A stretch of 4,898 nt of DNA from a virus (taxonomy: Duplodnaviria > Heunggongvirae > Uroviricota > Caudoviricetes). A program made the translations under genes and the position numbers. A model generated the notes under the pieces. It was not told the origin of the DNA, made no database searches, and worked only from the letters and a program-made list of their open reading frames with translations. Where the stretch lies: IMG/VR virus record IMGVR_UViG_2534681628_000018. One strand, given 5' to 3'. This document shows positions 236-4,898 of this stretch, in pieces. The first letter of the stretch is position 1. Each line of letters starts with the position of its first letter.

Positions 236-487
236 ATGTACGAATTAACTCTATCGCCAGCAGAGATTCAAGAGATCACGAAATACGAGCGATACACAAA
301 ACAGCAACACCAGTTAAGGCTGCACGGTATCCCATTTGTAATCGGTCCTAAAAACGAACCAATAGTTCTTCGCAGGGATATTCCACACGGACTGACTACG
401 ATGCCAAAAGCACCTGAACTGGTTTCCGCTGAACCCGATTTTGAGGCGCTGAACAATGGGAAGACCAAGAAAAAACAAAAAAGATAA
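236..487 (+). CDS. xis: Excisionase (lambda Xis-like recombination directionality factor), 83 aa
   Basis: Small ORF immediately upstream of and overlapping int. The N-terminus MYELTL resembles lambda Xis (MYLTLQEW...), and the basic C-terminal tail NNGKTKKKQKR resembles lambda's ...RNGKKAKS. ATG at 236 is the only start in this frame after the upstream stop at 167-169; AAGG lies about 12 nt upstream. Confidence 0.65.
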   Translation: MYELTLSPAEIQEITKYERYTKQQHQLRLHGIPFVIGPKNEPIVLRRDIPHGLTTMPKAPELVSAEPDFEALNNGKTKKKQKR

Positions 488-1475
488 TGCACTACCACCG
501 CGTGTTAGATCGAATGGTTACAGTTACGTATGGAAACCCGAAGGAAGCACAAGAACTATAGGGCTCGGAAGAGTGCGGGAAACCAGCATAGCTAAAGTCT
601 GGCAAAATTATGAGCTGGAAAAAGCAAAACTCCACAACATAATGACAGTAGCTAAATTATGGCACATGTTTATGGACTCCCCTGCATTTACAGAACTGGC
701 CCCCCGAACCCAAAAAGATTATCGGCAACATCAAAGGGCATTGTTGGCAGTATTCGGAAAAGTGCTTGCTGATAATGTAAAAATTGAACAGGTAAGAATT
801 TTCATGGATAAGCGAGGACTTGAGAGCAAGACCCAGGCAAACCATGAACTGGCAAGTCTGAGCCGTATATACGGATGGGGATACGAGCGTGGGTATGTAA
901 AAAATAATCCATGCAAAGGAGTCAGAAAATTCACACTTAAAGCCCGTACTGTTTACATCACCGATGAACAGTATGCTGCAATATATGCGGAAGCAATTCC
1001 ACAGTTATGTATTGCAATGGAGATATCCTATCTTTGTGCGGCAAGGCTCGGTGATGTACTCGAGCTGAAATGGCAGGATATTATGGATAAAGGGATTTAC
1101 ATTGAGCAAAACAAGACTGGCACTAAACAAATCAAGGAATGGTCTCCGCGATTACGTACGGCGATCCAGTTAGCCCGAAATGTATCTTCCGGCACATGCG
1201 AGTATGTGATCAACACAACCAAAGGCGAGAAGGTAATAGCCAAGACGCTGAACAACTGGTGGAATCAGGCTAAACGTGCAGCCGAGCAAAAAGCCGGCGT
1301 TCCGTTTGGATGCAACTTCCATGACATAAAAGCCAAAGGGATTTCAGATTACGAAGGCAGCAGTCGCGACAAACAAATTTTCAGTGGACACAAAACAGAA
1401 AATCAGGTGTTGATTTACGATCGTAAAACCAAAATCACCCCAACACTGGATTTGCCGCTTGTGGTCAGTAAGTAG
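456..1475 (+). CDS. int: Site-specific tyrosine recombinase, lambda Int family, 339 aa
   Basis: N-terminus MGRPRKNKKDNALPPRVRSNGYSYVWKPEG...GLGRVRE parallels the lambda/HK022 Int arm-binding domain (MGRRRSHERRDLPPNLYIRNNGYY...GLGRDRR). Catalytic-domain landmarks align by eye: AARLGDVLELKWQDI (Arg I), IEQNKTGTK (Lys), FHDIK (box II His), GHK (His), VLIYDRK (Tyr nucleophile). First in-frame ATG after the stop at 450-452; TAG stop at 1473-1475. Confidence 0.92.
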   Translation: MGRPRKNKKDNALPPRVRSNGYSYVWKPEGSTRTIGLGRVRETSIAKVWQNYELEKAKLHNIMTVAKLWHMFMDSPAFTELAPRTQKDYRQHQRALLAVFGKVLADNVKIEQVRIFMDKRGLESKTQANHELASLSRIYGWGYERGYVKNNPCKGVRKFTLKARTVYITDEQYAAIYAEAIPQLCIAMEISYLCAARLGDVLELKWQDIMDKGIYIEQNKTGTKQIKEWSPRLRTAIQLARNVSSGTCEYVINTTKGEKVIAKTLNNWWNQAKRAAEQKAGVPFGCNFHDIKAKGISDYEGSSRDKQIFSGHKTENQVLIYDRKTKITPTLDLPLVVSK

Positions 1476-1480
1476 GCAAT

Positions 1481-1496
1481 CCAGAAAATTTTCTGG
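1481..1496. other. Perfect 16-bp palindrome CCAGAAAATTTTCTGG, 5 nt downstream of the int stop
   Basis: Read directly from the sequence; self-complementary. No T-run follows on either strand, so more likely a protein-binding site or RNA stem than an intrinsic terminator. Confidence 0.3.
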
Positions 1497-1503
1497 CAAA
1501 AAG

Positions 1504-1513
1504 ACTTGGTATA
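1504..1513 (+). repeat. Candidate integrase arm-type site ACTTGGTATA (int-proximal arm)
   Basis: The same 10-mer recurs at 1733-1742 on the other side of the att core, and TTGGTATATT (1506-1515) recurs at 1747-1756. A degenerate copy CTTGGTGTT lies at 1549-1557. Confidence 0.4.
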
Positions 1514-1616
1514 TTAACTCTGAATAGCTCCCTAATATCTTGATTTTTCTTGGTGTTAGGTCTGATTAACTTTTCAGCTATTTTGCGTATTGCACTGATT
1601 TTTCTTTATTTTTCTT

Positions 1617-1676
1617 CGGTCTTGAAAACCGGCGACCCGAAAGGGTTCCAGAGTTCGAATCTCTGCGCTTCCGCCA
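1617..1676 (+). other. att core: 3'-terminal 60 nt of a tRNA-Ser(UGA) gene (serT-type), from the anticodon stem through the CCA end; not a complete tRNA
   Basis: CGGTCTTGAAAACCGGCGACCCGAAAGGGTTCCAGAGTTCGAATCTCTGCGCTTCCGCCA matches the 3' part of E. coli tRNA-Ser(UGA) as I recall it: anticodon loop CUUGAAA, long variable arm, T-arm CAGAG/TTCGAAT/CTCTG, acceptor 3' strand CGCTTCC, discriminator G, CCA. The required 5' acceptor strand GGAAGCG and D-arm are absent from the ~30 nt upstream (1587-1616 is AT-rich and unrelated). Confidence 0.85.
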
Positions 1677-1684
1677 AATAATCA

Positions 1685-1718
1685 AGGGGTTACAAAATGG
1701 TAGCCCCTTTGCTTTTTT
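1685..1718 (+). terminator. Rho-independent terminator directly downstream of the tRNA-Ser fragment; possibly bidirectional
   Basis: Stem AGGGGTTAC (1685-1693) pairs with GTAGCCCCT (1700-1708), 9 bp with one G-U pair, loop AAAATG, followed by TTGCTTTTTT (1709-1718). On the minus strand the same hairpin is followed by a weaker U-rich stretch (TGATTATTTGG), so it could also end the tfa/stf transcript. Confidence 0.6.
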
Positions 1719-1722
1719 GGCT

Positions 1723-1756
1723 CTTGGTATAAACTTGGTATACCAATTGGTATATT
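1723..1756 (+). repeat. Cluster of candidate integrase arm-type sites: three direct TTGGTATA copies at ~11-12 bp spacing plus an embedded 12-bp palindrome
   Basis: CTTGGTATA at 1723-1731 and 1734-1742, ATTGGTATA at 1746-1754; perfect palindrome TACCAATTGGTA at 1741-1752. Helical-repeat spacing and placement 47-80 bp from the core resemble the P'1-P'3 arrangement of lambda attP. Confidence 0.45.
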
Positions 1757-1817
1757 TTCAGTCTTTAATATCTGCGATATTTTTCCCGCGAGCACCTCTT
1801 TTGATGTCTTTGTGGCC

Positions 1818-2402
1818 TCAAGGTTTTTCTGAGCTAACGACCAGTTTCCTGATTGAACCCAAATCCTCCAGATTATTCAGTTCTTCCTTCATCTCCCGCT
1901 GACGTCGATAAATCTCGTCATTGCGATCGAGCTGCGCCTGCGCCATTGCTGCCGCCAGTTCTTCCAGTTCCGGCATTGACAGTTTCACCTGTTGATTATC
2001 GGCATCACCCCATGCAAGGGCGGTTCGTGCCGTATCGGATTTCGCCGCCATTACTACCGGATAAAGACGGGCCATTGAGTCGGGGCCAGCGTTCCAGGTG
2101 CGACCGTTCCATTCAAAGGTGAACGGCAGTGCTTCCTGTTCTGTGCGCCATGCCTCGATTTCCTGCTTTTTGGCATCCTTCGCCGCGGCGATAAGTTCCG
2201 GCGTGACAGTGAAAGGGGCGATTTCGCCCCATTTGCCGTTCTGCAACTCTTCCCAGATGCGCTGGCCTGTCGGTGCGGTATCATCCTGCATGGCGGTATA
2301 CGGGACGAATTCCGTTTCACCTTCAAATAACACCTCGCAGTCAACCGCACCATTTTCAAGATAATGGGCGTTTCTGATGCCCTTTACCGCTCTGATTTTC
2401 AT
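1818..2402 (-). CDS. tfa: Tail fibre assembly / tail fibre chaperone-like protein, 194 aa
   Basis: Begins 13 nt downstream of the stf stop on the same strand, with GGGGAA about 8 nt upstream of its ATG (minus-strand reading TAA-CGGGGAATAAAAC-ATG). Same length as lambda Tfa (194 aa) and shares a central W-N-G-x-x-W segment (FTFEWNGRTWNAG vs lambda EYQKWNGTAWVKD). The C-terminal half is not obviously lambda-Tfa-like, so the assignment rests mainly on synteny. Confidence 0.6.
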   Translation of the reverse strand: MKIRAVKGIRNAHYLENGAVDCEVLFEGETEFVPYTAMQDDTAPTGQRIWEELQNGKWGEIAPFTVTPELIAAAKDAKKQEIEAWRTEQEALPFTFEWNGRTWNAGPDSMARLYPVVMAAKSDTARTALAWGDADNQQVKLSMPELEELAAAMAQAQLDRNDEIYRRQREMKEELNNLEDLGSIRKLVVSSEKP

Positions 2403-2415
2403 GTTTTATTCCCCG

Positions 2416-4898
2416 TTACTCGATGCGCACAAACAGGCAGATACGACCGGTTATTCCTTTAGAGTCCCTGACCCCGGATAGCGCCATATAACGCCCCGGG
2501 AAAGTGTACCCTGTAGCTCCTGCACTCGGTGCGGAATTGTAGGAGCCAACCCCAGCAGAAGATATTAAGCACGAAAGATTAACTCCGCCCAGTTGTGACC
2601 CCTGCACCACATCACCCAGGCCAATATTGATTTCTTTATCCCCGGAAGTTGTTCCGCGATAAACAGCCAGCACTGGAACACCCACTGCCGGGTATTTGAA
2701 ATATGAGCCTGAGCCTGCTGTCCGGGACAGTAAGAACGCCAGCGAATCGCCGTCGTAAATAATGGGGCTTACTGTTGCATTCCAGTTGTTTCCACTCCAG
2801 CGGTAAGTCAGGCGATGAATACTGTGCTCACCTTCGTAATACTGGTTAAAACACAGCAGCGTTTTGAATTTACGCACTGTGTCTGACTCGTCGTTATCAA
2901 AGGGTGACCACATCACATCAATGATGCCGTTAAATTTCGTTGTGCCAGCCAGCAGCATGGAAGAGTCCGCAATACTGACCGCATAACGCCCCGGGGCGGC
3001 CTTTTTCAGCCATTCAACAAAATCGGCCTGCCCGTTAAATGTCAGAGCGTCGGCACTGGTGAATGCCTGACCGAATCCATGCATGCCGGACAGTGCCAGT
3101 CTGCCCGGTGTGCGGTCGCGGATATCGCTCTGGGGTTCCATCGTCGCAGCCGCTTTCAGTTCAAGCTCCGTGCGCATGGCTTCAGGCGTGTTTCGTGCCA
3201 GTAATGAGCGAGCCTTGTTGCTGCATGGAATTGCTTTTGCTTTAAAGTTATCACCAAAATAAAGGAGAGAGTTTTGTCCCACCCCTGCCTTGCTGATACT
3301 GGTTAACGTATCGTTAAGCGGCTGTTTACCTGCCAGTGCATTAGTGACGGTTGTCGCAAAGTTCGGGTCATTGCCCAGTGCCGCTGCCAGCTCGTTCAGC
3401 GTGTCCAGGGCTTCCGGTGATGAGCCAACCAGTGCGGCGAGCAGTTTGCGCACAAACGCCGCATTGGCTATTTCAGTGCCTGCTGCATCATCCTGTGGTG
3501 TTGGCGTGGACGGCGTTCCGGTCAGTGCCGGGCTGTTCAGTGGCGCTCGGGTTTCAATCAGTGCCCGGAGTGAAGCCTCGTTGACTTTCAGGTTTTCCCA
3601 GCCAACCAGATAACCACCTCCGGTAGTCCAGTAGCGATTGTAATAAATATGACCGTTAATACCGTAAAAAATAATGATTTTGGCCACATATGCCGTATCA
3701 TGGCTGATTTGAGGTTCCGGCCAGATAATTTCAACGGTACCCTTGAACAGCACGCCCTGTATTACCGCATTTGTATCTGCATAAACGGCATAGCGTCCGG
3801 GATTTGCCGTTTTTACCCAGCGGAGAAAATCGGCCTCTGTTTTAAACTCGGTCCTGTCGCCGATGAAAAATACTTTCCCGAATCCAAACATGCCGGGAAT
3901 CGCCAGACGGCCTTCGGTGCGGTCGTAAATATTCTCCTGCGCATCCTTCTGTGCTGCATTGCCAAGTTGTGGCGTCAGATTCGTCCAGGTGACCGGGGCG
4001 GAGATATTATCGCCACGAACGGTCATAAGAATCCGTCCGTCTTTTCCAAAAAACAGAACCAGCTTTGTTGCTGTCTGGCTGGTTTTGTCGGCCCGGCCAT
4101 TATCCAGCCAGATAATTTCTGTTATCCCGGTTGTTTCTTCCGTTCGTGTGGCAAAGGTGTAATAGCGTCCCGGGTGCAGGTTGTGAGCGGTTCTGGCTAC
4201 AGTCGCCATATCGCTGGCAATAATTGAACGCGCTCCGGCGTCCGTCATTCCGTAACCATACGCACCGGGAAGCGCAATGCGGCCTTTCGTGCTGTCGTGA
4301 ATGTCTGTCTGAATATCCATTACCGCTGCGCTTTTCAGCTCAAGCTCATTGCGCATAGCTTCCACTGTGGCCTGTGCCAGCAGTGACCGGGCTTTTTCTG
4401 ACAGTGGAGACAGTGAAGCATTTCCGTCCTGATTAAAGCACAGAAGATTATCTGCCCGTTCTTCCAGATTACTGATTGCGGTTAACACGTCACTGAGTGG
4501 CTGTTTACCTGCCAGTGCTTTGGTGACTGTCGTCGCAAAATTCGGGTCATTTCCCAGCGCCGCTGCCAGCTCGTTCAGCGTGTCCAGGGCTTCCGGTGAC
4601 GAGTCAACCAGTGCAGCGAGCAGTTTGCGGACAAATGCCGCGTTCGCTGTTTCCAGACCGGCAGCATCGTCCGGTGGGGTTGGTGTGGTGGGCGTGCCGG
4701 TGAATGCCGGGCTGTCCAGCGGCGCTTTTGTTTTCGTCTCGTCCATGACGGTTTTGACGGCCTTCGGTGTGGCTGCCAGTTCTTCGCTGTCGTTGTCCGT
4801 ATCACTACAGAGTTGCACCAGGCCTTTTTCTGTCGTGGAAGCACTGCTTCCCTTCAGGTCATCAACTATCCGTTGCGCCTCGTCCCTGTGCTGTTTTG
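2416..4898 (-). CDS. stf: Side tail fibre protein (lambda Stf-like), C-terminal ~827 codons; N-terminus lies beyond the window edge
   Basis: The ORF track starts it at a GTG (4818), but the frame carries no stop in the codons from 4896 down to 4819 (...KQHRDEAQRIVDDLKGSSASTTEKGLVQLCSDTDNDSEELAATPKAVK). This continues the match to the conserved lambda Stf segment (...RKGIVQLSSATNSTSETLAATPKAVKVVMDETNRKAPLDSPALTGTP...NTLNELAAALGNDPDFATTMTNALAGKQP). TAA stop at 2416-2418. Confidence 0.9.
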   Translation of the reverse strand, partial: KQHRDEAQRIVDDLKGSSASTTEKGLVQLCSDTDNDSEELAATPKAVKTVMDETKTKAPLDSPAFTGTPTTPTPPDDAAGLETANAAFVRKLLAALVDSSPEALDTLNELAAALGNDPNFATTVTKALAGKQPLSDVLTAISNLEERADNLLCFNQDGNASLSPLSEKARSLLAQATVEAMRNELELKSAAVMDIQTDIHDSTKGRIALPGAYGYGMTDAGARSIIASDMATVARTAHNLHPGRYYTFATRTEETTGITEIIWLDNGRADKTSQTATKLVLFFGKDGRILMTVRGDNISAPVTWTNLTPQLGNAAQKDAQENIYDRTEGRLAIPGMFGFGKVFFIGDRTEFKTEADFLRWVKTANPGRYAVYADTNAVIQGVLFKGTVEIIWPEPQISHDTAYVAKIIIFYGINGHIYYNRYWTTGGGYLVGWENLKVNEASLRALIETRAPLNSPALTGTPSTPTPQDDAAGTEIANAAFVRKLLAALVGSSPEALDTLNELAAALGNDPNFATTVTNALAGKQPLNDTLTSISKAGVGQNSLLYFGDNFKAKAIPCSNKARSLLARNTPEAMRTELELKAAATMEPQSDIRDRTPGRLALSGMHGFGQAFTSADALTFNGQADFVEWLKKAAPGRYAVSIADSSMLLAGTTKFNGIIDVMWSPFDNDESDTVRKFKTLLCFNQYYEGEHSIHRLTYRWSGNNWNATVSPIIYDGDSLAFLLSRTAGSGSYFKYPAVGVPVLAVYRGTTSGDKEINIGLGDVVQGSQLGGVNLSCLISSAGVGSYNSAPSAGATGYTFPGRYMALSGVRDSKGITGRICLFVRIE
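3302..3547. repeat. Intragenic direct repeat, copy A (~246 bp), encoding the second copy of the conserved Stf collar segment
   Basis: Aligns without gaps to 4481-4726 at roughly 80-85% identity by hand count, including a 41-bp perfect match (3380-3420 = 4559-4599, GCCGCTGCCAGCTCGTTCAGCGTGTCCAGGGCTTCCGGTGA). Confidence 0.85.
4481..4726. repeat. Intragenic direct repeat, copy B (~246 bp), encoding the first copy of the conserved Stf collar segment
   Basis: See copy A. The copies lie 1,179 bp apart, an exact multiple of three, so they are in the same reading frame and orientation. Confidence 0.85.

Follow-up and report, generated by a model that had tools for sequence, protein, structure and literature searches.

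In phage lambda, the core of the attachment site is 15 bp long and lies between gal and bio on the chromosome. The arm-type sites P′1-3 of lambda are located on the int-proximal side of the core, and a b region of roughly 5 kb extends from tfa to attP. Genes for tRNA are another kind of target, and a class of tRNA integration sites centered on the anticodon was reportedly described by Williams in 2002. This anticodon-centered attP class is also recognized in Islander (PMC4383910), and serT is a known integration locus (PMC8767318). A phage with a closely similar attachment region, Evi (LR597642), has been isolated as a coliphage from infant faeces (PMC10910852). Here, we describe the attachment site in a stretch of 4,898 nucleotides (referred to as the window) from a Caudoviricetes record of IMG/VR (IMGVR_UViG_2534681628_000018), in which phage genes stand on both sides of a fragment of serT. 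We conclude, with a probability of about 0.9, that the window contains the complete attP form (arm-core-arm) of a lambdoid Escherichia coli phage that integrates in serT between hyaA and yccA.

This conclusion comes from an alignment of the window with the empty site of E. coli K-12 (hyaA-serT-yccA), with two types of lysogen junction and with related junctions. Loci of one type (L007-type) have the identical DUF4376 protein at the prophage end beside serT-hyaA, and those of the other (L017/L018-type) have the identical integrase (Int) at the prophage end beside yccA. The window is the same as attB of K-12 only over positions 1617–1681, and it never follows the host outside this 65-bp core. 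Left of 1617 it tracks the int-side arm of the int-core-yccA loci, not the 5′ half of serT, and right of 1681 it tracks the phage-side arm of the hya-serT-tfa loci. There are 0 mismatches between positions 1–1681 and L018 and between positions 1617–2760 and L007, the overall identities being 99.5% (L018) and 99.06% (L007). Because host identity is confined to 1617–1681 with phage-specific arms on both sides, the segment has the attP form: it is POP′, a core equal to attB with phage DNA on either side, and not BOP′ or POB′. An initial annotation, made from the letters alone, had claimed an intact attP rather than a prophage-chromosome junction, and the two phage arms around the 65-bp core, each agreeing with one half of a lysogen without a mismatch, bear out this claim.

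The core (1617–1681, + strand), whose limits are the zero-mismatch limits of the four-way alignment of attP, attL, attR and attB, is made up of the 3′ 60 nt of serT (1617–1676) and the sequence AATAA. The serT piece is identical to the tRNA-Ser (UGA) gene of K-12 from the anticodon stem to CCA. It was identified by this alignment, as ARAGORN and Rfam scans of the window found no tRNA or other RNA gene. The tRNA fragment that the initial annotation had noticed at the att site is real in the sense of a partial serT, 60 nt of which are identical to K-12, although the boundary that it placed at about 1720 was slightly off: identity with the host stops at 1681. The identity block starts one base into the anticodon stem and continues through CCA (1676) and 5 nt beyond. 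Because it begins one base inside the anticodon stem, it has the signature of the anticodon-centered class, to which the serT site would belong. As in that class, serT regains its 3′ part from the element while a displaced 3′ fragment stays behind, with no notable difference, and the attL-type loci indeed have an intact serT with phage sequence downstream. Judging from the limits of identity, crossover must occur within 1617–1681. The anticodon loop of serT, CTTGAAA (1621–1627, + strand), has the inverted stem halves CGGT and ACCG at its sides, and this 7-bp loop together with core-type sites is presumed to be the overlap region. No polymorphism was found within 1617–1681 in any sequence compared, and because the core is invariant, polymorphism cannot map the crossover point. 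Polymorphisms were also sought as a sign that the two halves of the window come from different phages, and this gave no discrimination, the core being invariant and the 100% matches of the halves being found in different lysogens.

Each arm has the elements expected of a lambda-type attP, namely arm repeats that differ from the core and, between these repeats and the core, sites with the consensus for integration host factor (IHF). The window contains five copies of TTGGTATA, where 0.07 would be expected, and each of them is inside 1504–1754. On the int-proximal arm, a candidate arm-type Int site ACTTGGTATA is located at 1504–1513 (+ strand); it belongs to the repeat family D1 and is kept in relatives. 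On the int-distal arm, three tandem candidate arm-type sites, TCTTGGTATA, ACTTGGTATA and AATTGGTATA, occupy 1722–1754 (+ strand). They start at 1722, 1733 and 1745 with a spacing of 11 and 12 nt, and the triplet is identical in Evi, the draft contig L024, O26, A36 and L007. A putative second site on the int-proximal arm, CTTGGTGTT (1550–1558, + strand), is a weak one that differs from the repeat at 2 positions. Relatives have nearly the same segment, with one substitution in RM11911, and it is possible that it represents a degenerate arm-type site. Evi, L024, RM11911 and O26 cease to be homologous to the window at 1758/1759, directly after the third repeat of the int-distal arm. This point marks the outer edge of attP, and the functional att span is about 255 bp (1504–1759).

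The two IHF-consensus sites are at 1533–1545 (int-proximal arm, - strand) and 1680–1692 (int-distal arm, + strand). They are the only exact matches to WATCAANNNNTTR in the window (two against 0.28 expected), both in the att region and each between the arm repeats and the core. The int-distal site is made by the phage-specific sequence that follows serT, in which the terminator hairpin is retained. The corresponding position of K-12 attB (L027) is AGATAAGGGGTTA, with 2 mismatches to the IHF consensus, and reads AGATAAG. The hairpin is part of a phage-borne intrinsic terminator (1684–1718, + strand), a 10-pair stem followed by a T run, with a folding energy of -17.5 kcal/mol (z = -3.2). Two versions of the terminator can be distinguished: the phage version, beginning with TCAAGGGGTTACAAAATGGTAGCCCC, is found in the window and in the hya-serT-tfa loci (attL-type, L007), and the host version, beginning with GATAAGGGGTTAGCTAAATGCTAACCCC, in attB and in the int-core-yccA loci (attR-type). 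At the other end of the site, 5 nt past the stop codon of int, is a perfect 16-nt palindrome, CCAGAAAATTTTCTGG (1481–1496, inverted repeat I5), which is nearly invariant in all relatives aligned and may bind a protein at the margin of the att arm.

The genes around the site are arranged in a familiar manner. The window opens with the 3′ end of an exonuclease gene, exo (2–169, + strand), of which the last 55 codons encode part of an Rv2179c-like 3′-5′ exonuclease domain (PF16473, E = 1.3e-13). Its start is off the window, and relatives are annotated with a 2.4-kb exonuclease gene upstream of xis. Next come xis (236–487, + strand), encoding an excisionase-like DUF4224 protein of 83 aa (PF13986, E = 1.8e-9; phrog_1266 “excisionase,” E = 6.5e-23), and int (456–1475, + strand), encoding a lambda-family tyrosine integrase of 339 aa (PF00589) with an N-terminal arm-binding domain; the 3′ part of xis overlaps the start of int. 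A non-coding gap of 342 bp separates int from the DUF4376 open reading frame (1818–2402, - strand; 194 aa), the stop codon of which is at 1818. This frame occupies the position of tfa (PF14301, E = 1.6e-16; phrog_1141 “tail fiber protein,” E = 8e-90) and is followed by that of the side tail fiber, stf (2416–4898, - strand; PF03406, phrog_2636), which is present as its C-terminal 826 codons with the start off the window. Thus xis and int point toward the serT fragment from the left, just as the initial annotation had stated, and so does the end of exo. The convergence from the right that it described also holds, as both genes are on the - strand, but the gene nearest to the site encodes a DUF4376 protein and not a Tfa of the lambda type (Caudo_TAP), so that the label tfa fits only by position. 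Likewise, the statement that the lambda vegetative map is reproduced around attP is correct for the convergence of int/xis and stf/tfa and needs qualifying for the b region: the conserved att arm ends at 1759, and a counterpart of the b region is absent from the window.

How far, then, does the likeness to lambda go? The integrase is of the heterobivalent kind and can be aligned with that of lambda including the arm-binding domain; xis overlaps int from upstream; arm-type sites are present on both arms with one triplet, and IHF-consensus sites between the arm sites and the core; the functional span, about 255 bp, is a further point of likeness; and int/xis and stf/tfa converge on att in the vegetative map. 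The differences are as follows. The target is a tRNA gene, serT, with an identity block of 65 bp; the triplet of arm-type sites is int-distal, on the side opposite to that of P′1-3; the sequence of the arm-type sites differs, no b region is present and DUF4376 takes the position of tfa; the integrase is only a remote relative (E = 4e-18), with Lys in place of Arg II; and the excisionase is a DUF4224 protein for which Pfam and PHROG searches of the window proteins found no link to the lambda Xis family.

Much closer is the likeness to Evi, which has the exo-xis-int-att region with 96.2% identity over positions 1–1758 of the window, including all arm repeats and both IHF sites. Beyond 1758 the two differ: Evi continues with an EspV remnant and about 1.2 kb of small open reading frames before a different set of tail-fiber genes, whereas the window continues with DUF4376 and stf. 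Tandem prophages at serT in O26:H11 11368, Z1323CEC0003 and RM11911 have the same int-core-arm junction within the chromosome with prophage genes on both sides, but they are 91–98% identical on the int side and have other modules right of 1759. This attP is of the textbook lambda type on a tRNA target and represents ordinary, well understood biology; its functional site is 96% identical to that of the deposited phage Evi and recurs in many sequenced chromosomes.

Single prophages at serT (the Stx2 prophage of P393-F10 and those of the L007-type and L018-type loci) are the integrated counterpart of the window, in that they have its halves at opposite ends; they differ in having the attL and attR configuration with host DNA outside, and the prophage of P393-F10 further differs in having a contractile P2-like tail and stx2. 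The exact Int was found in 178 blocks, and the core and yccA follow it in 9 of the 10 places listed. The gene for the exact DUF4376 protein stands at the very end of a lambda-tailed prophage (with L, K, I, J, Lom and an Stf of 1086 aa), beside serT-hyaA, in 10 of the 10 places listed. For both proteins the places listed are those on the longest contigs, and contigs of 2–5 kb with the same Int and DUF4376 proteins also exist. In the complete genome of P393-F10, one 49-kb serT prophage carries both modules at opposite ends: at the yccA end an int module with 97.4% identity to positions 1–1710 of the window, and at the serT-hyaA end stf-DUF4376 with 91–92% identity. The initial annotation had proposed to look for the split halves at separate ends of a serT-linked prophage, and the loci of P393-F10, L007-type and L018-type are positive for exactly this arrangement. 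Excision of a prophage like that of P393-F10, or a second integration beside one, would give the gene order of the window.

In Evi, L024, RM11911, A36 and P393-F10, one and the same int-att module is found with tail ends that differ. Since the prophage of P393-F10 has stx2 and a P2-like tail of the contractile type, mosaic phages have these modules in common. The pairing of this int with DUF4376-stf, which was not found elsewhere, is consistent with the mosaicism of the relatives. The prophage of P393-F10 (L033, NZ_CP076274.1) is itself a composite of the int module, stx2, a subtilase AB5 toxin operon, a lambda-like head and a P2-like contractile tail.

Several points weigh against the reading of the window as a complete attP of a phage. 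The exact junction, that is, this int module joined to this tail-fiber end, is in no collection searched: no record among INPHARED phages, RefSeq complete E. coli genomes or PLSDB plasmids covers at least 80% of the window, a 60-mer from 1716–1775 is absent from IMG/VR, and neither the GTDB representative genomes nor the JGI metagenomes contain the junction pattern (int-side arm, 116 N, tfa-side arm). The arm-type and IHF sites are candidates assigned by repetition, conservation and consensus only, and the Arg II position of Int, at which almost every tyrosine recombinase has Arg, is occupied by Lys. Lastly, the junction may have been created by a short-read assembler that fused the int-side and tfa-side arms of a single lysogen across the att core, a repeat of 65 bp when exact and of about 94 bp when the similar terminators are included. 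Such a join is conceivable in that every lysogen has the core twice, in attL and attR, the halves of the window are base for base the ends of lysogens, and the window is short, with each end in a gene of which E. coli prophages have repeated copies (exo and the N-terminal region of stf). It is nonetheless unlikely: finished long-read genomes often contain genuine junctions of the attP form from this family, an assembler that meets a repeat of this kind will usually break the contig there and not mis-join it, and the sequence is unremarkable at 1617 and 1681. A plain junction of prophage and host, in which one side of attL or attR would be host DNA, is refuted and can be given practically no probability, since the 5′ half of serT with hyaA and the host terminator with yccA are absent on both sides. 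Phage proteins are encoded on both flanks and an intact tRNA is absent from the window, and apart from the tRNA fragment that is present nothing further speaks for such a junction.

The attP form thus stands, and the question is from what kind of molecule it was sequenced. Because the junction within a tandem array is attP in sequence, the window fits a free phage and a tandem array alike, the two sources between which the initial annotation had left the choice, and the weights that we give to these two sources, to the assembly join and, for the rest, to other origins are soft, reflecting mainly the frequency of contexts in public data, in which bacterial assemblies far outnumber phage genomes, a fact that counts for the array. 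The chance that the window comes from inside a tandem array, at the point where two prophages inserted at serT of one chromosome meet, is close to even. The order would then be hya-serT, a first prophage ending in exo-xis-int, the core, a second prophage beginning with tfa-stf, the core again and yccA, and a second integration into a resident attL or attR would remake the attP-form sequence between the elements. The initial annotation had regarded a tandem prophage as unusual, but the arm-core-arm segment (at least 80% of positions 1560–1760) lies inside the chromosome in 80 of the 5426 complete E. coli genomes. In Z1323CEC0003 there are three att places, and prophage genes extend for 20 kb to either side of the junction; the layout is shared by RM11911, O26:H11 11368 and L024, a 273-kb draft contig with 99.83% identity to positions 1–1759. 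A family-wide 82-nt pattern of the attP form was found in three IMG/VR contigs, all of O26 type (about 91%), and had no match in the collections of genomes and metagenomes searched. One of these three contigs is a region of 84.7 kb, which we infer to be too long for a single lambdoid phage, and the other two are short like the window. Tandem prophages with a shared att are described as common in Shiga toxin-producing and enteropathogenic E. coli (PMC8112680), and 125 tandem arrays are recorded in Islander (PMC4383910). On the other hand, the particular junction is in no RefSeq complete E. coli genome, the exact DUF4376 is located at single attL-type ends in all 10 places listed, and the window itself contains neither a second att copy nor host DNA. 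That it derives instead from an unintegrated phage genome (virion-derived, circularized, or excised and replicating), in which case it is a true attP, can be proposed tentatively. The isolated phage Evi has the int-att module with the same gene order around att; the flanks are intact within the window, Int and DUF4376 being identical to widespread proteins and stf being open over 826 codons; and precise excision of a single prophage would yield the window, the halves being identical to the two ends found in integrated prophages and both modules being carried by one prophage in P393-F10. Against a free genome, neither INPHARED nor IMG/VR nor the JGI metagenome contigs contain the junction, and projects on phage genomes normally give a contig of 40–50 kb and not one of 4.9 kb, a point that matters only if the window is the whole contig.

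With the arm-core-arm segment taken as attP, attention turns to the enzyme that would act on it. In a phmmer comparison with lambda Int (1z1b), the integrase gave E = 4e-18 with residues 1–340 of the lambda protein aligned. The alignment of the arm domain begins at residue 1 (MGRPRKNKKDNALPPRVRSNGYSY against MGRRRSHERRDLPPNLYIRNNGYYCY in lambda), so that an N-terminal arm-binding domain is present; the Pfam scan of the window proteins reported no match of Int to the arm-domain model. Among the catalytic residues, Arg I (AARLGD), Lys (QNKTG), His II (FHD), His III (GHK) and Tyr (LIYD) are kept. At Arg II, which is R311 in lambda, residues 289–296 read FHDIKAKG (window 1320–1343) where lambda reads FHELRS, so that Arg is replaced by Lys. 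This Lys is found throughout the serT-type Int group, including Evi, the O26-type copy and P393-F10; the ompW-type integrase of a related prophage (L003) retains Arg II. In a survey across the family, Arg accounts for 99.1% and Lys for 0.5% at this position, and the corresponding R292K variant of Cre is active with lowered activity and is defective in ligation (PMC2943603). Because of this Lys and the lowered activity of Cre with the same substitution, we can only infer that Int is active, on the strength of phage Evi and the large number of precise junctions seen in lysogens. The serT-group Int is probably a naturally active lambda-type integrase with Lys in place of Arg II, and the attP of the window its working substrate.

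A few further observations concern the tail-fiber end and the prophages that resemble the window. In L007-type loci, the full length of stf is 1086 aa. Within the part in the window there is a direct repeat of 265 nt (3290–3554 and 4469–4733, 83% identity, spaced 1179 nt), and the tail fiber thus has two copies of a collar or “Phage_fiber_2”-type module, each followed by a similar domain. Positions 2761–2948 (190 bp within the C-terminal third of the tail-fiber protein) contain 19 of the 31 mismatches to L007, the closest attL-type locus, and the neighboring 1144 bp are identical; the segment has the look of a recombination patch toward the C terminus of the fiber. In the serT prophage of TUM1881 (L028, NZ_CP128979.1; locus 13452–32103), the gene for the large terminase is split by about 17 kb. 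The insert is satellite-like, with its own integrase, a primase-like gene, genes for capsid, portal and terminase, and IS3, and it resembles the helper-embedded satellites described previously (PMC10111431). In E. coli Br_190_kylling (L003, 20234–27198), a comparable order of int, att and tail-fiber genes is found inside the chromosome at the ompW site with a different integrase, and a P4-like element interrupts the prophage beyond the ompW att.

How might the site work? The sequence comparisons show the arm-core-arm arrangement with its core boundaries, the repeated sequences and both kinds of lysogen junction. By analogy with lambda, these suggest a lambda-like intasome, for which the binding sites, the position of the overlap and the activity are assigned provisionally. 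The N-terminal domain of Int would bind to the ACTTGGTATA repeats, one or perhaps two on the int-proximal arm and three on the int-distal arm, and the two consensus sites would be where IHF bends the DNA. Through the catalytic domains of Int, the anticodon stem-loop in the phage core would be paired with its counterpart in the chromosomal serT, and strands would be exchanged in or near the 7-bp anticodon loop. Upon integration, the tail-fiber end would come to lie beside an intact serT, of which the 3′ 60 nt and the terminator would be supplied by the phage, and the phage terminator would end transcription of the regenerated gene. The int end would be followed by the displaced serT fragment and then by yccA. 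With DUF4224 Xis as the directionality factor, the reverse reaction would recreate the sequence of the window.

The att site is delimited here for a common group of serT-integrating E. coli prophages, with a core of 65 bp, an attP of about 255 bp and candidate sites for Int and IHF. Some members of this group carry stx2 or type III effector genes. The definition helps to delimit serT prophages and to spot tandem arrays or excised circles in assemblies, and adds little beyond annotation. If the junction derives from circular molecules, the phage was active in the source sample. If the proposal on the integrase is true, the serT-group Int would offer a natural test of how a heterobivalent integrase tolerates or exploits the replacement of Arg II by Lys, for example through slower ligation.

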